Assembly (NCBI GenBank): GCA_964406775.1
Contig: CAYOSW010000004.1
Coordinates: 7,392-71,391 of the forward strand
Direction of reading: 5' to 3'
DNA length: 64,000 nucleotides
Origin: an uncultured Gammaproteobacteria bacterium
GTDB lineage: Bacteria; Patescibacteriota; Microgenomatia; Daviesbacterales; UBA10151
The translations under genes and the position numbers were made by a program. Below the pieces are notes generated by a model, which was not told where the DNA came from, made no database searches, and saw only the letters and a program-made list of their open reading frames with translations. Shown one piece after another: positions 17,578 to 55,032 of this stretch. Each line of letters opens with the position of its first letter. The first letter of the stretch is position 1.

Positions 17578-18315
17578 TTGACTTATTATCTTAGCATACC
17601 CAACAATAGAGATATGGTCCGTTTCCTGCCAATACTGCTCATTATAGGTGCAATCGTCGCGCTTCTTAACTATACACCCGTAAAAAGAGAGCTCGCTTAT
17701 AAATTGGGGATTTCCGGGGATAAAACTACTTCCTGCTGTGACCCGAATAACCTCTCTAAAACCGGAGACTTTGACGAGACAGCCAATATCGCAATTTATA
17801 ATAACGAGACAATTGATTATCCTAAAACTTCACTTGCCCAGGCTATTAAGAACATCGCCATTAAGGAAACCAAGGTTCTCGGAACGACTAATGCCTCAGG
17901 ACAGGAAAAATGGATAGATGTGTCTCTGGACGAACAGAAGTTAAGAGCCTATGAGGGCGATACTGTGGTTATGGAATTTCCCATATCTTCCGGAAAATGG
18001 GGACCGACGCCTAAAGGTGAGTTTAATATCTGGTATAAAACCCGCGCCCAGGTTATGAGCGGAGGCTCAAAAGAACTCGGAACATATTATTACCTACCTA
18101 ACGTCCCGAACAATATGTTTTTCTATCAGGGATATGCTATTCACGGAGCGTATTGGCATAATAACTTCGGTCAACCAATGAGTCACGGATGTGTAAATGC
18201 GCCGCTTGCTCAGGTTGCAGAGCTTTTTGAATGGACTGGACCCGTTCTTCCTGCGGGCACTAACGCTTTAAGAGCCAGTTCGGATAATCCTGGAACCCGC
18301 GTAAACGTACATTAG
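17578..18315 (+). CDS. L,D-transpeptidase (YkuD domain)
   Basis: YAIHGAYWHNNFGQPMSHGCVNAP is the catalytic His / SHGC Cys motif. N-terminal TM anchor. The true start is possibly the internal Met (MVRFLPILL). Confidence 0.8.
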   Translation: MTYYLSIPNNRDMVRFLPILLIIGAIVALLNYTPVKRELAYKLGISGDKTTSCCDPNNLSKTGDFDETANIAIYNNETIDYPKTSLAQAIKNIAIKETKVLGTTNASGQEKWIDVSLDEQKLRAYEGDTVVMEFPISSGKWGPTPKGEFNIWYKTRAQVMSGGSKELGTYYYLPNVPNNMFFYQGYAIHGAYWHNNFGQPMSHGCVNAPLAQVAELFEWTGPVLPAGTNALRASSDNPGTRVNVH

Positions 18316-18998
18316 TCTTTTAAGACTGTAGTTTTTAAATTAACTCCATCGTACTTAAACTCAAAAGTTACTTTTGAATCAAGGTTATTCTTAATATAAA
18401 GGTTTTGATTTGCAGAAGCTGCAACCGAATCCGGGCTTGCATAAACCGCAACTCCGTACTCCTTCGGTATTTCCGGAATCGGATAAAAGTCGTGGTTTGA
18501 AGGAGCAATAGATTCCAATCCCGCATCAAGAGCAGCCCAGTGAATTAACGAAGCTAAATGGCAAACACCCATTCCGTATAATCCACCTTCAAATTTATAT
18601 CCGTCTCCGGCACCGAAGTTCGTATGAGCCGTAACAGTAACATTATCCTTATATTCATCGGCAATAATATCGTGGTAAGCGAATCTTTGTCCCGGTTCAA
18701 GGCTGAAAGTCATAGTAAAAGGCTGATCTAAAGCTTCCCAATTGATGTCTTTTGAGGATTTAACCTTACCAGAAAGATAGGCTAAATTAAGTAAAATGTT
18801 GTCTTTGTAGACGTTTTCAGGCAGATCATAACCATATCTCTTATCAAGAGATATTGATCTTGAAGAAAGCTCAGTTTGTGCGTGAGCCTGCACCTTGAGC
18901 TCAGCTGAGCTCGTAGGCTGAATCTGTGCTTCGGAAAGCATTAAAGTCGAGGCTGTAAGTAATGAAACAAAGGCAGTTTGTATCATAATTGAACTCAA
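18312..18998 (-). CDS. VanW-like domain protein (secreted)
   Basis: GGLYGMGVCHLASLIHWAALDAGL ... YGVAVYASPDS resembles the VanW core (G-x-C-Q/H-x-S-x-L-x-x-A-x-L-x-AGL). N-terminal signal peptide. Confidence 0.55.
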   Translation of the reverse strand: MSSIMIQTAFVSLLTASTLMLSEAQIQPTSSAELKVQAHAQTELSSRSISLDKRYGYDLPENVYKDNILLNLAYLSGKVKSSKDINWEALDQPFTMTFSLEPGQRFAYHDIIADEYKDNVTVTAHTNFGAGDGYKFEGGLYGMGVCHLASLIHWAALDAGLESIAPSNHDFYPIPEIPKEYGVAVYASPDSVAASANQNLYIKNNLDSKVTFEFKYDGVNLKTTVLKD

Positions 18999-19048
18999 TA
19001 CTATAGCATACTATGGGTTAATAATCAAATCTATAGGCTCTCTTTTTC

Positions 19049-31270: not shown

Positions 31271-31874
31271 CTAAATCCCCGTTTAAAAGAAAAGATCCGA
31301 TAACCAGTTGATCAACTCCCGCTTCAACTAAATCTTTTGCGTTTGTATCCCTTACCGACCCATCAACGGAAATGTTTACATTCCAGTCTTTGGATTTTAA
31401 TTTCTTAACTCTATCTATTGTAGCAGGAATAAAGGGCTGACCCTGAAAACCGGGAATTATACCCATAACCAGAATCTGATCAATCTTATCTTTAAAAGGC
31501 TCAAGCGCTTCAAGAGCTGTCGTATCATTGATGGCAATTCCGGCTTCCATACCTGCATCTTTTACCGCATCGATCACCTCATTCATCTCATCTTTACACT
31601 CAAAATGAAAAATAACTCTATCAAAGCCTGCGTCTTTTAACTTTTTAACCCACTCCAAAGGATGGGAAACCATCAAATGAGCTTCCTTTTTGAGATTTAT
31701 CTCCACTTTTCCGACCTCCTCGGGACTAATAGTTTCGTTCGGGACAAAGTCGTTATCGGCAAAATCTATATGCACCCAGCCTTCCTGAAAGGAATGCGAA
31801 TTTTTAAGTCTTTCAATATGGGTTTTAAATTCCCCGATTGTTTTATCGAGGATTGCCGGAACTATCAGGATCAT
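31236..31874 (-). CDS. rpe: Ribulose-phosphate 3-epimerase
   Basis: ILIVPAILDK...VHIDFADNDFVPN...HLMV are the conserved Rpe segments. ATGA overlap with rpiB. Confidence 0.85.
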   Translation of the reverse strand: MILIVPAILDKTIGEFKTHIERLKNSHSFQEGWVHIDFADNDFVPNETISPEEVGKVEINLKKEAHLMVSHPLEWVKKLKDAGFDRVIFHFECKDEMNEVIDAVKDAGMEAGIAINDTTALEALEPFKDKIDQILVMGIIPGFQGQPFIPATIDRVKKLKSKDWNVNISVDGSVRDTNAKDLVEAGVDQLVIGSFLLNGDLDENVEKIWEII

Positions 31875-32386
31875 TTGTATAAATTTTCTTCAATTTTCTT
31901 AATCTTTTCAATCCTTCTTTCGTGTCTCTCATCTCCGGAATATCTAGAGTCCAGAAACAGCTTCACTGCGCGGGCTGCATCCTCCTCCGATAAAAACCTT
32001 GCACCCAAAGAAAGCATATTGGAATTGTTGTGCTCCCGGGTTAATCTGAGCATTTCAAAAGGATCATCGCTCGTTGTACCGGTAATATCGGTTGCGACCG
32101 GCGGAATCATCGGACCATAAAAGAGTGCGCATCTGACATTTTTAAACTTATTCGCAACTATTGCCTCCCCCTGACCTGATCCTCCGAAGACGATTCCGAA
32201 ACTTTCCGGGTTTTCCGAAACCTTGGCTGCCGCTTTTGAGATTAAATCAGGATAATCGTCGTTCTTATCAAATTCGAGGGCTCCGCAATCCTCAACGTCG
32301 TGTCCCTCGCTCCTTAAAAAATCAGCGATTTTATTTTTCAACTCAAAGCCTGCGTGATCAGTTCCGAGATAAATCTTCATACGCAT
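31871..32386 (-). CDS. rpiB: Ribose-5-phosphate isomerase B
   Basis: MRMKIYLGTDHAGFELKNKIADFLRSEGHDVEDCGA is the RpiB N-terminus. The ORF-track start at 32479 is probably an upstream in-frame extension, with the likely true start at the MRMK Met. Roughly 25-30 aa C-terminal extension. Confidence 0.8.
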   Translation of the reverse strand: MRMKIYLGTDHAGFELKNKIADFLRSEGHDVEDCGALEFDKNDDYPDLISKAAAKVSENPESFGIVFGGSGQGEAIVANKFKNVRCALFYGPMIPPVATDITGTTSDDPFEMLRLTREHNNSNMLSLGARFLSEEDAARAVKLFLDSRYSGDERHERRIEKIKKIEENLYK

Positions 32387-32594
32387 AGCGTATAGTTTAC
32401 AGCTTTGGAAATCAAGGGATGAACTACTTTGATCCAGTTGAAGAAAGCCTGAATTTTTGCTTATAATGATGATGCTCAAACTAAAAAGTGGGTTTTCGAG
32501 AATACCGGCTACGTGCCGGTTTTTTCGTGATTTATACTCATTAATTAATAACCTATAGTTTGATATTCTCTCTCGCCCTTGTTATAATTTCCGG

Positions 32595-33557
32595 ATGGCT
32601 GTTGCAGGCGTAGAGACCGAATATCATTTTAATACTCACGATGCGCTTAGAAAACTTTTGAGAGGTGTTTCACCTACTACAGTGTTTGTCCATCCTATTT
32701 TTCCAGATAAATTGCCCTGCCTCTCAGAAGAAGATCTCAAAGTCGGTCGCCTCAGTAAGAATGCTGATATTAAAAAAGCTATGGTTGGAGTTTTGCAAAG
32801 TGCGGCCTCAGCAGATATCGCCCACGCTTTTTTGCACACCTCAATACCGGCTTCAAGTCAAAGAGGAAGATACTCTCCTGGCATAAAAGCAACTGTAAAT
32901 TTAATTGATGCTTGCATATTCCCACAGTTTGAAGAAACTGTTCGGCCTGCTTTTTATGGAGTTTTAGATGCTTATCATTCAGGCTCCATACAGGCACCTC
33001 TCCTTGACCGTTTGATAGCAATTTACGGACCTCTCCTTGAACCGGCTCCTTCTGTAACAAGAATGGAGGTTGGTGCTAAATTCAGCAGAAACCGCAAAAC
33101 TTTGGATCTTTATACGAAGGATTACACACACATTCTTGCAGATTTGTTTGAAATCGAAAGCAAGAAGAGACCAGATGTATCAGAGTTATCAGATCTAATA
33201 GAGCACTCGACTTCAATTATAGGTGCGATGGCAGTTCGTAGTACCCAATTCTTATTGACTGCGTCTTTTGTCTTAACAGGCGATACAAGACCAACCGTCA
33301 ACCCATATAATCCAACCAATTTTCAGTTAACTCGCCGTCCCGACGGTAAACTTTCCGGCAAAATCCGCAGAAATGTCCGGGAAAAATTTGAGTCTGAATA
33401 TCCGAACACCTTAAGATTGGCTCCTCGAGATGAACCCTTTCTCGTCACAGGCTGTCCTGCAGCCTCCGACTTGATTGAGCTTGTACTTCAACGATATGCA
33501 CAAGCTGTACGAAATAATGCCGAGGGCAACTACAACACCTACAAAACAGTAGAATGA
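32595..33557 (+). CDS. Hypothetical protein (320 aa, no recognizable domain)
   Basis: Long ORF with no TM segments. An extended -10 (TGTTATAAT, 32580-32588) ends only 6 nt before the ATG, so it is a candidate leaderless mRNA. Confidence 0.5.
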   Translation: MAVAGVETEYHFNTHDALRKLLRGVSPTTVFVHPIFPDKLPCLSEEDLKVGRLSKNADIKKAMVGVLQSAASADIAHAFLHTSIPASSQRGRYSPGIKATVNLIDACIFPQFEETVRPAFYGVLDAYHSGSIQAPLLDRLIAIYGPLLEPAPSVTRMEVGAKFSRNRKTLDLYTKDYTHILADLFEIESKKRPDVSELSDLIEHSTSIIGAMAVRSTQFLLTASFVLTGDTRPTVNPYNPTNFQLTRRPDGKLSGKIRRNVREKFESEYPNTLRLAPRDEPFLVTGCPAASDLIELVLQRYAQAVRNNAEGNYNTYKTVE

Positions 33558-33618
33558 TTGCCCTGAATATCTACTGGACATTTTAATTCAAACGTTCTAG
33601 TATGGGGTTTCTTCGGTT

Positions 33619-35034
33619 TTGCATATGGACTTGCCCAAGAATCTCACTTTTGTTGATATTGAAACCACAGGTGGCTCGGTAACCGCCGACCGGATTATTG
33701 AAATCGGAATTTTAAAAGTCCGCGACAATAAACTTGAAAAAACTTACCAGACTTTTTTAAATCCCGACCGTCCGCTTCCGGGAGAAATCCAACTTTTAAC
33801 CGGGATTAACCCTTCGGATTTAGAAAAAGCTCCTTCTTTTTTTGATATTAAAGACGATCTGCAGGAGTATTTTAATGAATCGGTGTTTGTGGCGCATAAC
33901 GCCAGGTTTGATTACGGATTTTTAAAGCAGGAATTTTTGCGTTACGGGGTAAAATTTACTCCCCGCCAGCTTTGCACAGTAAAGCTTTCAAGATTACTTT
34001 TCCCCGAGCACAGACACCATAATTTAGACAGCATTATTGAGAGATTCCGGTTTGATATCCAAAACCGTCACCGGGCTTTTTCGGACGCCAAAATTCTGTG
34101 GGATTTTTATCAGGAAATTCAAAATCTTTTTCCGCCGGAAAAATTAGTTCAAACTGTGAGCCATATCTTAAAAAAGCCCAACACTCCGCCGGGCTTAAAA
34201 ACTTTCGACCTCTCCCATCTTCCCGAATCGCCGGGAGTTTATATTTTTTACGGAAAATCCGGTGTTCCTCTTTACGTAGGAAAATCGAAAAATATCCGAG
34301 AGCGGGTTTTTAATCATTTTTCATTGAGTGCCGGCAATTCGCTGGAGATGAAAATCTATAATCAGGTAGAGAGTGTTGAGTTCGTCGAAACAGCCGGAGA
34401 GCTTGGCGCATTTCTAAAAGAATCGGAAATGATAAAAAAGTTAATGCCTCTATATAACCGTATGCTGCGGAATAAGGAGAAACTCACAGTTGCCAGGAAA
34501 GATTTAATTGACGGAATTTTTACAATAAAGCTTGAGGAAAGTGATTTCATAGGTTCTGATTCACTCAGCGAAATTATGGGAGTTTTTAAAAATAAAAGGA
34601 CAGCCCGAGAAAATTTAGTGGCTCTTGCTAAAGAATTTAATCTTTGCGACAGATTTTTGGATTTGGAAAAAACAAAAAGTTCCTGCTTTAATTACCGCCT
34701 GGGTAAATGTTCCGGTATATGCGCAGGGAAAGAGAATACAGCTAAATATAATCTGAGATTTATTGAGGCTTTTATAAGTTCCAAAATAAAATCCTGGCCC
34801 TATAAGGGGCCTATTATAATAAAGGAAGTGAGTGAAAACTCCGGTAAAGAGGAACAATTCTTGGCGGATAATTGGTGCATTATTCAAAAACACGAAGGCG
34901 ACAACGATATCATAAAAGATCTGGAGTTTGACCTCGATGCATATAAAATTTTAAAAAGATTCCTCTTTAAAAATCCCAACCAAATAGTACTAAAAAATTA
35001 CGGGGAGGCCGTTTTTTCACCCGACCTCCCCTGA
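33619..35034 (+). CDS. DnaQ-like 3'-5' exonuclease fused to GIY-YIG nuclease (Cho / UvrC-homolog-like)
   Basis: N-terminus FVDIETTG...VAHNARFDYGFL carries the DEDDh exo I/II motifs. The mid-region GVYIFYGKSGVPLYVGKSKNIRERVFNHF is the GIY-YIG motif. The architecture matches mycobacterial Cho. Confidence 0.7.
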   Translation: MHMDLPKNLTFVDIETTGGSVTADRIIEIGILKVRDNKLEKTYQTFLNPDRPLPGEIQLLTGINPSDLEKAPSFFDIKDDLQEYFNESVFVAHNARFDYGFLKQEFLRYGVKFTPRQLCTVKLSRLLFPEHRHHNLDSIIERFRFDIQNRHRAFSDAKILWDFYQEIQNLFPPEKLVQTVSHILKKPNTPPGLKTFDLSHLPESPGVYIFYGKSGVPLYVGKSKNIRERVFNHFSLSAGNSLEMKIYNQVESVEFVETAGELGAFLKESEMIKKLMPLYNRMLRNKEKLTVARKDLIDGIFTIKLEESDFIGSDSLSEIMGVFKNKRTARENLVALAKEFNLCDRFLDLEKTKSSCFNYRLGKCSGICAGKENTAKYNLRFIEAFISSKIKSWPYKGPIIIKEVSENSGKEEQFLADNWCIIQKHEGDNDIIKDLEFDLDAYKILKRFLFKNPNQIVLKNYGEAVFSPDLP

Positions 35035-35042
35035 AGTACATC

Positions 35043-35354
35043 TCATTTTAATCTCCTTCTTACTGCTTTAAGCAGCTGGGGGTTTACGTAAACTCCCCTT
35101 TTTTCAAAATCCTGATATGCCCAGCCTAAAACGTCTTTGGCATATTTCTGATCATTTGTTGCCAAAGTATGAGCAAATCCAGACAATTCTCTAAGCAATC
35201 CGGATTGTCCGACTATCTTGGCAAGTCTCGCCCTATCGTGAGGCCTGTCGATGCTCGCCATAGCCATCCGCATTGAAGTTTCGGTTACAGCTGTTTTCCA
35301 ATGTTCCGTGGATACAAACGCGACATCCTGTCTTCTTTGTTGTTCAACTACCAT
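35043..35354 (-). CDS. Hypothetical protein (103 aa), co-operonic with the ATP-grasp ligase
   Basis: A strong SD (AAAGGAGGTG) lies 6 nt upstream of the ATG. It is 2 nt downstream of the ATP-grasp stop. Basic C-terminus, no known motif. Confidence 0.45.
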   Translation of the reverse strand: MVVEQQRRQDVAFVSTEHWKTAVTETSMRMAMASIDRPHDRARLAKIVGQSGLLRELSGFAHTLATNDQKYAKDVLGWAYQDFEKRGVYVNPQLLKAVRRRLK

Positions 35355-35356
35355 TA

Positions 35357-36328
35357 TTATTCACCTCCTTTCAAAACTTTTTTGTATTCCTCAATAAAAA
35401 AATCGGCCAGCATTCCCCAACCGTCAATCCCGTACTCCTGCTTGAAAGAAGAGCGTAAAATCGAAAGGGCGTTAATGTCATAAACGAACCAATCTCCTTT
35501 TTGATCAACCAAATATTCAACACCTCCGCATTCCAGTCCGGCTTTTTGCACTGTTTTTTCTATGGCTTTTACAATTCCAGAAGGAATATCCCGAAAAAGT
35601 TCAAAGCGGACTGAGTCTCCGGGATTTGCAACACAATACCCGATTTCATTTTTCGCTTCGCCTCTCTCTATATCACAGGAGTCCGAAGGACATAAATTAA
35701 AAGTTCCCGGGGTAAAAACTTTCATCGCATAAATAACTTTTCCGTTAATAGTTTCTACCCTGATGATGTTATTTTCTTTCGGCTGTATAAATTCTTGAAG
35801 AATCAATAAATTATCAGTAGGCATAATTAAAGATTTGTCACCAATCGCATCAGCAAGAGACCGCTTTGACGTAAATTTTTGAATCCCCACCCCCGAACCT
35901 CCCAAATTAGGTTTGATGACTACCGGGAAAGTAAGTGAATCGATATTTTTTAGAATCCCGGATAATGAATTAACTATCACCGACTTTGGCTGAGGAATAC
36001 CCCAACTCCTTAGTAGCGACAACTGAAATGCCTTGTTTGTCTCAAGAATGACTGCCCTGGAACCGTTTATCACTCTTTTTCCTAAAGATTCCAAATATAG
36101 GATGTAATTTAATGTGAATGAGAAAGCCGATGAGTGATTACGGTTTCCCGCACTTGGACTTAAACGGTTTACAAAAAAAGGATATTTTATACCTGAAGTT
36201 GCATCGTATGCGGATGATGAGATATCCATCCTTTCATAGGAAATGTTTCTTCCGGAAAATTCCTGATATAGGGCGTCCAGCCAGAATGGATGTTCGTCTA
36301 AAATAATAATCGGTTGTTTATTGCTCAT
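35357..36328 (-). CDS. ATP-grasp ligase (RimK/LysX-like fold)
   Basis: VVIKPNLGGSGVGIQKF is the RimK-type P-loop-like segment. C-terminal GGVEYLVDQKGDWFVYDINALS is the Mg/ATP-binding region. SD GAGGAT upstream of the ATG. Confidence 0.7.
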   Translation of the reverse strand: MSNKQPIIILDEHPFWLDALYQEFSGRNISYERMDISSSAYDATSGIKYPFFVNRLSPSAGNRNHSSAFSFTLNYILYLESLGKRVINGSRAVILETNKAFQLSLLRSWGIPQPKSVIVNSLSGILKNIDSLTFPVVIKPNLGGSGVGIQKFTSKRSLADAIGDKSLIMPTDNLLILQEFIQPKENNIIRVETINGKVIYAMKVFTPGTFNLCPSDSCDIERGEAKNEIGYCVANPGDSVRFELFRDIPSGIVKAIEKTVQKAGLECGGVEYLVDQKGDWFVYDINALSILRSSFKQEYGIDGWGMLADFFIEEYKKVLKGGE

Positions 36329-36355
36329 TTTTTATCCTCACAAAATTTGGCCACT

Positions 36356-36600
36356 AAAAAAGCCCTTGCTTGCTTACTAGTTTCCTAATAAACAAACAAG
36401 GGCCTTCAAAAGGCGGTTCCACCTTGCTTCATCCGTTACCGGATCTCATTCCCTGACTCCTCCTCGCTGTGCTCTGAGTAAACTTTAAAGTCCACATCGA
36501 ACGAAGTGAGATGACATCAGTTTGTAATATTTTACAGTTTTACTTCTGTAATCCATTTTTGGATTCAGCTCCCGGATCGCAACTCCAGTCAAACGCTTGT
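36356..36600 (-). promoter_or_regulatory. T-box riboswitch leader (promoter, Stem III, T-box antiterminator, intrinsic terminator) upstream of the ATP-grasp operon
   Basis: On the minus strand, TTGACA (-35) is followed 17 nt later by ATATAA (-10). Stem III hairpin AUCCG-GUAA-CGGAU. T-box core GCAAGGUGGAACCGCC (plus-strand coordinates 36412-36427) matches the consensus AGGGUGGNACCGCG. Antiterminator: A1 CAAGG/CCUUG, 7-nt bulge UGGAACC, A2 GCC-UUUUGAA-GGC. Competing terminator: a 19-bp stem (three G-U wobbles) with GAAA loop and U6, plus-strand coordinates 36356-36404. Confidence 0.7.
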
Positions 36601-36719
36601 AAGTGTTTTATATCAAACTTTAGGCTCGGATGTCAACTATCCCTATTTTTTGAATGCTGATAGAAAACTCCACATCGTAATTATTTGGAATATACATAAT
36701 TTGCAGTAAAATACCGAAT

Positions 36720-54897: not shown

Positions 54898-54969
54898 CTG
54901 CGGATCAGGGATTCGAACCCCAATAGACAGATCCAGAATCTGTCGTCCTACCATTAGACGAATCCGCAA
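54898..54969 (-). tRNA. tRNA-Gln (anticodon CUG)
   Basis: The reverse complement folds as a cloverleaf: acceptor UGCGGAU/AUCCGCA (U1-A72), D-loop AAUGGUA, anticodon stem ACAGA/UCUGU with loop UUCUGGA (U33, CUG), T-loop UUCGAAU, discriminator G73. CCA is not encoded. Confidence 0.8.
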
Positions 54970-54990: not shown

Positions 54991-55032
54991 TTCCGTCTAA
55001 TGGGGCGTGTTGCATTAGACGATCCCGCAATA
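54991..55032 (-). repeat. Degenerate copy of the tRNA-Gln 5' end / D-arm (hairpin CGTCTAATG...CATTAGACG plus ATTGCGGG flank)
   Basis: CATTAGACGATCCCGCAATA differs at 2 of 20 positions from the genuine tRNA 5' region 54950-54970. Confidence 0.45.

Follow-up and report, generated by a model that had tools for sequence, protein, structure and literature searches.

A member of an undescribed and very rare protein family encoded between a candidate small RNA gene and a Cho-like nuclease gene in a Daviesbacteria genome

The described systems closest to the nuclease gene treated here are Cho of E. coli (YdjQ) and the actinobacterial PRK07883 fusions, a group of DEDD-exonuclease/Cho fusions of which Rv2191 of M. 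tuberculosis is an example; a literature search returned nothing useful on Rv2191. Leaderless mRNAs with extended -10 promoters have been described in Actinobacteria, Deinococcus, and others, and hypothetical families and unannotated RNAs are frequent in CPR genomes. To our knowledge, promoters and regulons in CPR bacteria are almost unstudied, and no relevant work on leaderless genes in CPR was found in the literature.

The window analyzed here is a stretch of 64,000 nucleotides, and the host of the interval under study was placed in the Daviesbacteria (Microgenomates, CPR) by nuclease identity and synteny. The interval is read, with a probability of about 0.6, as three independent transcription units, namely a small RNA gene, an open reading frame (orf320), and a Cho-like nuclease gene, orf320 being no partner of the nuclease (Table 1). 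Taken as a class, promoter-like sites were no more frequent in the region than expected (8 observed vs 10.1).

Table 1. Coordinates of the features of the interval, in positions of the window
Feature	Position	Strand	Remarks
Promoter-like site of the small upstream unit	32438..32467	+	TTGAAG-18-TATAAT; score 10/12
Candidate sRNA of ~52 nt ending in an intrinsic terminator	32474..32525	+	From sequence conservation and fold
orf320 promoter	32552..32588	+	Family motif CCTATAGTTTG (32552-32562) overlapping the -35 TTGATA (32560-32565); 17-nt spacer; TG-n-TATAAT (TG 32580-32581, -10 32583-32588)
orf320	32595..33557	+	320 aa; member of a rare uncharacterized family
Promoter-like site of the nuclease gene	33575..33603	+	TGGACA-17-TAGTAT; score 9/12
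DEDDh 3'-5' exonuclease fused to a GIY-YIG Cho-like endonuclease	33625..35034	+	469 aa
103-aa ORF (orf103)	35043..35354	-	Last gene of the ATP-grasp transcription unit; no family matches
Terminator-like hairpin and T-run	35078..35104	+	8-pair stem, tail CTTTTTT; inside orf103
RimK/LysX-like ATP-grasp ligase	35357..36328	-	Context only; behind orf103

Domain analyses of the nuclease bore out the first-pass annotation, which had described it as a Cho-like fusion of two nucleases. The N-terminal DEDDh domain matched PF00929 (RNase_T; E 1.7e-33, residues 9-158), the TIGR00573 score was 103.8 bits (cut-off 71.5), and the GIY-YIG model PF01541 reached 23.1 bits (cut-off 22.6). Comparison with NCBIfam gave E-values of 1e-68 for PRK07883 (DEDD exonuclease) and 9e-53 for PRK10545 (excinuclease Cho), the latter over model positions 27-284 of 289. 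Both scores lie below the equivalog cut-offs (231.8 vs 495 bits and 179.2 vs 367 bits, respectively), and the protein is a homolog with the PRK07883/PRK10545 architecture and not a curated equivalog. As in Cho and the PRK07883 fusions, an N-terminal DEDDh domain is joined to a GIY-YIG/UvrC-N-like domain, aligned to nearly the whole Cho model and without the C-terminal half of UvrC. The protein differs from PRK07883 in being shorter than the models (563-642 positions) and in its CPR host, and no canonical LexA/SOS box was found in 32387-33624 with GAAC-N4-GTTC and CTGT-N8-ACAG (<=1 mismatch), motifs that may not be those of a CPR host. This likeness applies to the neighbor nuclease only and not to orf320. 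By homology, the GIY-YIG domain of the enzyme would make the 3'-side nick in damaged DNA, and the 3'-5' exonuclease domain would do the trimming. Proteins with 79 and 73% identity to the nuclease are encoded in two Candidatus Daviesbacteria MAGs. The ortholog of the nuclease in L001, a fully syntenic relative at 92.7% DNA identity, adds UvrC_M and Cho_C (weak) matches, and the dN/dS between the two nucleases was 0.07.

Genomic context analyses revealed that the nuclease lies on the same strand as orf320, as annotated in the first pass, with its ATG 67 nt past the orf320 stop instead of the 60 bp given there; an in-frame TTG is found at 33619. Before the nuclease in L024, the -10 of its promoter-like site and the GG(T)TTTCTTCGG stretch behind it are likewise found; L023, which lacks orf320, has an TGTTAGAAT box in front of the nuclease. 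The nuclease would be the ancestral occupant of the locus, with its own promoter. At the other end, the 8-bp convergent gap to the ATP-grasp operon is indeed there (35035-35042), and the gene met across it is orf103, with the ATP-grasp gene behind. The terminator-like hairpin inside orf103 starts 44 nt past the nuclease stop. The dN/dS of orf103 against L001 was 0.10, and the corresponding site in L024, a genome without the ATP-grasp gene at this position, carries a 136-aa ORF of weak similarity to orf103.

Upstream of orf320, the hairpin with six T residues annotated before its promoter is present (ACCGGC-TACGT-GCCGGT, stem at 32504-32520, T6 at 32520-32525), about 5 nt to the left of the earlier estimate (~32510-32531), and is part of a separate conserved small unit. 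This unit is nearly invariant in L001/L002, L023, L024, and L030, where flanking coding DNA is just 65-73% identical, and in L030 it is found in an unrelated context; its -35 and -10 stay in place in L023, L024, and L030 but are separated by a spacer of variable sequence. The fold z-score was -3.1, and the pair closing the stem occurs as AU, CG, or GC, a covariation limited to one pair, among four independent copies only, with a score equaled by 35 of 500 shuffles. Conservation and fold thus point to the hairpin as the probable terminator of a separate, conserved, sRNA-like gene of Daviesbacteria. This gene would make from its own promoter an RNA of ~52 nt ending at the hairpin and T6, and the hairpin would therefore insulate the downstream genes. 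The unit resembles orphan or trans-acting bacterial sRNA genes in its own promoter, short conserved body, and intrinsic terminator, and differs from them in having no Rfam family match and no conserved target pairing found. Two candidate targets were rejected: pairing over 12 nt with codons 6-9 of the nuclease mRNA has no counterpart in L023 or L024, and the stronger pairing predicted with the 5' end of rpiB is not kept in L023.

In relation to orf320, comparison with L001 revealed 74 synonymous and 39 non-synonymous differences, and it is a genuine gene, since its dN/dS is 0.13, full-length homologs (310-342 aa) are found at identities down to 22%, and two AF2 models reach a pLDDT of 84 (84.4 with a pTM of 0.84 for the first), so that the lack of conservation that the first-pass annotation had allowed for does not apply. 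No domain had been detected in the 963-bp frame, in agreement with blank Pfam and NCBIfam searches, and PADLOC, PHROGs, and PDB sequences likewise gave no match. An exhaustive search among 1.84 billion representatives revealed 12 representative clusters, word-indexed searches with the orf320 protein and two profiles returned only close relatives or already known members, and no family member was found in GTDB species genomes and viral contigs by the peptide patterns used. The family is therefore undescribed, very rare, and confidently predicted to fold, without a significant sequence or structural relative. The family alignment (A2) contains seven invariant residues (K61, A70, D74, Y177, S205, C287, and P288), and the N-terminus is conserved across the family (residues 1-14, with an HFNT motif at residues 11-14).

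The promoter of orf320 is an 11/12 match, the best score within 31500-36500, and is separated from the ATG by six nucleotides (TTCCGG) without a Shine-Dalgarno sequence. A TATAAT-like box (5-6/6) was present 4-8 nt before the ATG in 10 of 10 independent family members, all of which share this layout and the lack of a Shine-Dalgarno sequence. The match is thus beyond chance, because family members elsewhere keep the same layout, and the start cannot lie far downstream, because the N-terminus is conserved; both results uphold the leaderless extended -10 arrangement proposed in the first-pass annotation. In addition, the motif C-C-T-A-T-A-G-T-T-T-G was found about 43 nt (40-47) before the ATG in eight of the ten members; the pattern C[CT][TC]ATAG[CT]T[TG], which was defined post hoc from the data it was counted in, had 6 background matches in 267 kb. 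Motif and leaderless start are kept at a protein identity of 22-35%. The sequence CCTATAGTTTGAT is a promoter motif site of the family. The motif also occurs upstream of a RelA_SpoT-like gene and a VanW-like gene; as CCTATAG, it is missing before the tRNA gene, and its reading as a general strong-promoter element was rejected on this ground.

Transcription of orf320 would proceed from this near-consensus extended -10 promoter and start at the A of the ATG, giving an mRNA that is probably leaderless, and expression may be controlled via the conserved CCTATAGTTTG site at the -35 region. The gene is like described leaderless bacterial mRNAs in the -10 lying 6 nt before the ATG, the TG extension, the lack of a Shine-Dalgarno sequence, and the conserved layout, and differs by the extra motif overlapping the -35, which the generic leaderless layout does not include, and by a start that is predicted from sequence. 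Leaderless-looking starts are frequent in this genome, and the layout is therefore not special to orf320.

In the two closest Daviesbacteria genomes (L023 and L024), the order rpe-rpiB-hairpin element-nuclease is kept and orf320 is missing from the syntenic slot, a result that favors the earlier suggestion of a horizontally acquired unit. Promoter and gene form a unit that was inserted between the nuclease gene and the small RNA gene in this lineage. This insertion, the extremely patchy distribution of the family, and the conservation of the promoter together with the gene in unrelated contexts would also suit a mobile accessory cassette (moron-like, defense or phage-derived) moving with its own promoter. 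We regard this as unlikely, since orf320 has no PADLOC or PHROG match and no relative in viral contigs by the patterns used, its G+C equals that of its flanks, and no integrase, transposase, or convincing direct or inverted repeats flank it. Moreover, a motif that also precedes RelA_SpoT-like and VanW-like genes is more in keeping with a host regulon than with the mark of a cassette.

Regarding function, the orf320 product is predicted to be a soluble, mostly helical, enzyme-like protein. Its only invariant cysteine, C287, caps the N-terminal end of the last long helix in the AF2 model, within a T-G-C-P-A motif directly before helix 290-310 in which C287-P288 is invariant and T285 and G286 are nearly so. 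The best guess is that C287 may be a reactive thiolate, acting as nucleophile, redox center, or axial ligand to a bound cofactor, a proposal based on a single invariant residue and on where it is predicted to lie. Structurally, the models came closest, if weakly, to the P450 fold, including the heme-free helper EryCII (PDB 2yjn_B), with about 180 residues superposed and likewise a Cys just before the last long helix. These similarities could indicate that orf320 has a cytochrome P450 fold in an extremely reduced and divergent form, in which C287 would serve as proximal thiolate ligand to heme or to a different cofactor and helix 290-310 would correspond to the L helix, a reading that we consider improbable. 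None of the 12 family members matched PF00067 at E<=10, and hhalign of the family against an alignment built from ten plasmid-borne P450 genes gave a non-significant probability of 1%; in the forced alignment, C287 does not fall on the heme Cys. From the Cys-pocket motif F-x-x-G-x-R/H-x-C-x-G, orf320 keeps only G-C and lacks both the conserved Phe at -7 and the basic residue at -2. The K-helix E-x-x-R and I-helix A/G-G-x-D/E-T motifs are not among the conserved columns of A2, and the weak hhalign match pairs an E-L-x-D of orf320 with E-x-x-R. Membership in the P450s by sequence was accordingly rejected, the profile-profile comparison being not significant and the Cys register unsupported. CPR bacteria are not expected to make heme, and no relevant work on P450s in CPR was found in the literature. 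A speculative reading, to which we give similarly little credence, is that the family may derive from the P450 architecture as a hitherto unseen, minimal form (~315 aa), or be an unrelated new fold converged on a Cys-before-helix cofactor pocket, with C287 as thiolate ligand or nucleophile and a small CCTATAGTTTG regulon.

The first-pass annotation had also proposed that orf320 is a repair-associated factor, which as a co-transcribed partner of the Cho-like nuclease would act with it on damaged DNA. The two genes share a strand and are separated by a short gap without a predicted terminator, so that co-transcription by read-through is possible, and the pair is kept in L001; this synteny says little, because the DNA of L001 differs by only about 7%. 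Farther away, each gene is found without the other, the nuclease in L023 and L024 and the orf320 homologs in nine other family contexts, which revealed no adjacent nuclease and no common neighbor. The nuclease also has its own conserved promoter-like site, and no LexA-type box was found in the segment searched. The partnership is thus largely refuted by the comparative data and very improbable, and the two genes appear to be neighbors by accident. Other neighbors of the family include Dus (two members), thiol-disulfide genes (three members), and a TrhO-like rhodanese (one member), none of them consistent across the family, and two adjacent 180-aa divergent genes near family members proved unrelated. 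Finally, the view that orf320 is a spurious ORF with a chance promoter match, for which the lack of a domain match and the lack of local enrichment of promoter-like sites could be cited, has a negligible probability and is already refuted by dN/dS, homologs, and fold prediction.

As a repair pair, the locus has no importance, the association of orf320 with the nuclease being apparently accidental. The units of the interval are mostly ordinary and hold no major surprise, with one undescribed protein family added; the points of small interest are this rare family, its promoter motif, and the candidate Daviesbacteria sRNA. The invariant cysteine of orf320 invites a simple biochemical test, and a conserved motif and leaderless start maintained at such low protein identity may offer a way into the control of transcription in these CPR organisms.

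The locus comprises a candidate small RNA gene, an inserted orphan gene (orf320) and an ancestral nuclease gene of known type. The nuclease shares 79% and 73% identity with its counterparts in two Candidatus Daviesbacteria MAGs (L023 and L024; Microgenomates, Patescibacteria/CPR). In both, rpe, rpiB, the intergenic hairpin element and the nuclease gene follow one another in that order, and orf320 is absent from the slot. Because both MAGs retain this order without orf320, the gene and its promoter form a lineage-specific insertion of ~1 kb, placed between the hairpin element and a promoter-like region of the nuclease that is recognisable in relatives. The suggestion, made as an alternative in the first-pass annotation, that orf320 is an acquired unit fits with the empty slot in these two MAGs. 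The G+C content of orf320 equals that of its flanks, and no repeats flank it. In L024, the slot held by orf320 in the window, 3' of the hairpin element and 5' of the nuclease, is occupied by a MITE-like insert of ~88 nt with terminal inverted repeats (CGTCATTGCGA...TCGCAATGACG). A split transketolase and SLOG genes lie 5' of rpe in that MAG.

Sequence comparison shows that orf320 is a gene. Between the window and L001, a syntenic metagenomic contig of 206 kb (DNA identity ~92.7%), it showed 74 synonymous and 39 non-synonymous differences (dN/dS 0.13), the ratios of other genes being 0.02-0.04 for rpe and rpiB and 0.20 for an ATP-grasp gene. A family of 12 proteins emerged when 1.84 billion cluster representatives were scanned exhaustively with HMMER; of these, 11 have 312-342 aa and match over most of their length, the remaining one being a 94-aa fragment. 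The family alignment revealed seven invariant residues (K61, A70, D74, Y177, S205, C287, and P288) and a T-G-C-P-A motif. The N-terminus is conserved as well (HFNT, residues 11-14), which excludes a start far downstream.

The feature travelling with the family is its promoter. In the window, the 11/12 match of the orf320 promoter was the top score within a 5-kb scan, and the 6 nt between the -10 element and the ATG contain no Shine-Dalgarno. This leaderless extended -10 layout, already described earlier for orf320, is kept among ten independent members: in each, a TATAAT-like hexamer (matching at 5-6 of 6 positions) ends 4-8 nt 5' of the ATG, and none has a Shine-Dalgarno before it. In one of the family, P0011, the annotated start probably lies 14 codons upstream of the true one, Met15 being preceded by TGTATAAT and 7 nt, which matches the leaderless layout of the family. 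A consensus C-C-T-A-T-A-G-T-T-T-G, overlapping the -35 hexamer, lies 40-47 nt 5' of the ATG in 8 of the 10 members; elsewhere the pattern occurred only 6 times in 267 kb of strand sequence, with a formal P of ~1e-26 that is optimistic because the pattern was defined post hoc. Such conservation of promoter DNA is notable since the family proteins are only 22-35% identical. The motif, as CCTATAG(A)TTTGAT with a -10 near the start codon, stands before two other genes in the same layout, one VanW-like (in the window) and one RelA_SpoT-like (on a different CPR contig); it was not found upstream of the window tRNA gene. This distribution suggests a regulator site or a specialised -35 element that would mark a small regulon or promoter class; alternatively, a cassette may move together with its promoter. 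Leaderless starts seem to be widespread in this genome: many first genes of the window lack a Shine-Dalgarno, and their start codon follows 6-9 nt behind a -10-like hexamer, so this arrangement characterises the genome and not orf320 alone. Part of the tRNA 5' end (TTGCGGGATCGTCTAATG) is duplicated ~60 nt 5' of that tRNA gene.

The G/C hairpin and T-run noted before the orf320 promoter are present, and belong to a candidate small RNA gene of ~52 nt with its own promoter and intrinsic terminator. Its body, (G)CTCAAACTAAAAAGTGGGTTTTCGAGAAT, is nearly invariant in L023, L024 and L030, whereas the adjoining coding DNA is merely 65-73% identical. The candidate is shared by Daviesbacteria and also occurs in one unrelated setting, the metagenomic contig L030. 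Hexamers of the -35 and -10 type stand at equal spacing before every copy, with variable spacer sequence, and the stem closes with A-U, C-G or G-C, depending on the copy (one covarying pair). Rfam gave no family match, and where the RNA was predicted to pair with the nuclease or rpiB mRNA at its 5' end, the pairing was not conserved. The region between rpiB and orf320 differs between the window and L001 at only ~3% of positions although dS is ~0.4, a conservation explained by the two promoters and the hairpin element.

Features of the locus and related sites (window positions unless a contig is named)
Feature	Position	Strand	Remark
Candidate small RNA gene (hairpin element) with promoter	32438-32525	+	near-invariant part 32474-32525
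Copies of hairpin element	L023:1790-1860; L024:4780-4860		
Copy of hairpin element	L030:2030-2110	-	
Hairpin ACCGGC-TACGT-GCCGGT	32504-32520	+	T-run to 32525
orf320 -35, TTGATA	32560-32565	+	then 17-nt spacer
orf320 extended -10, TG-n-TATAAT	32580-32588	+	
orf320	32595-33557	+	ATG at 32595; 320 codons
Nuclease gene	33625-35034	+	ATG to stop
orf103	35043-35354	-	
Terminator-like site	35078-35104	+	
ATP-grasp gene	35357-36328	-	
Strong terminator of leader	36355-36404	-	
T-box-like leader	36395-36602	-	
MITE-like insert	L024:4863-4950		
orf103 homolog	L024:6375-6785	-	
P0011 start region	L028:817-859		
VanW-like gene	18312-18998		
Motif of VanW-like gene	18999-19048	-	
Motif of RelA_SpoT-like gene	L004:~11258; L006:~4622	-	
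tRNA gene	54898-54968	-	
Partial tRNA duplicate	55010-55030	-	
Leaderless-looking first-in-operon starts	36720, 39756, 48750, 50930, 52849 (-), 55503, 56735		

The description of the nuclease as a two-nuclease Cho-like fusion was borne out by its RNase_T/DEDDh (E 1.7e-33) and GIY-YIG domains and by alignments with the excinuclease Cho model (E 9e-53, covering almost the whole model) and the PRK07883 'DEDD exonuclease' models (E 1e-68), all scores falling under the equivalog cut-offs. The 8-bp gap to convergent transcription is real; the facing gene is the 103-aa orf103, and the ATP-grasp gene lies behind it. A terminator-like site inside the orf103 coding region probably ends the nuclease transcript, and the transcription units would therefore overlap at their 3' ends. 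The ATP-grasp gene (RimK/LysX-like) looks like a second lineage-specific insertion: L024 lacks it at the syntenic position and has a weak homolog of orf103 there (27% identity, E 0.002). A weak T-box-like leader with a GGTGGAACCGC box precedes the ATP-grasp/orf103 operon (30.6 bits, the gathering score being 93, with E 3.8e-5 in a 421-nt search); Rfam did not recover it in the homologous L024 region, though a similar box is visible there.

Genomic contexts of nine further family members revealed no Cho-like nuclease adjoining an orf320 homolog (0/9), and window 32387-33624 contained no canonical LexA box; the proposal of a repair-associated factor paired with the nuclease is therefore unsupported. 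The neighbours were mutually unrelated, including FKBP with a TrhO-like rhodanese, Dus, peptidase M20 with a Trp repressor, Wzy_C with S1, and LigD_N with Zincin_1. Dus recurred in two contexts and thiol-disulfide oxidoreductases, a few genes away, in three, which is too loose as linkage. Two adjacent 180-aa divergent genes proved unrelated. The first-pass annotation is confirmed in its observation; its reading was right on the leaderless promoter, the Cho-like fusion and the acquired unit but erred on functional pairing.

AlphaFold2 models of the window protein and of a family member 22% identical to it, built from 12- and 13-sequence alignments, were confident (pLDDT 84.4 and 84.1; pTM 0.84 and 0.82) and showed mainly helices with one small beta hairpin, the invariant C287 directly preceding the last helix (290-310). 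A P450-like protein is an unlikely possibility: P450 is the nearest architecture, yet membership fails. Foldseek gave no significant neighbour (best E-value 0.17), P450s and EryCII merely dominating the weak tail; hhalign against an alignment of ten genuine P450s from plasmids gave a probability of 1%, and greedy alignment placed C287 off the heme cysteine. The family alignment shows neither the Cys-pocket nor the E-x-x-R or I-helix signature, and no member matched Pfam p450 even at E<=10. As a working proposal, C287 would serve as a reactive thiolate capping the N-terminus of a helix, in the role of nucleophile, redox centre or cofactor ligand, and K61, D74, Y177, and S205 may contribute to one site with it. 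The useful leads from this locus are an invariant-Cys family without significant relatives, a conserved promoter motif and a candidate small RNA.
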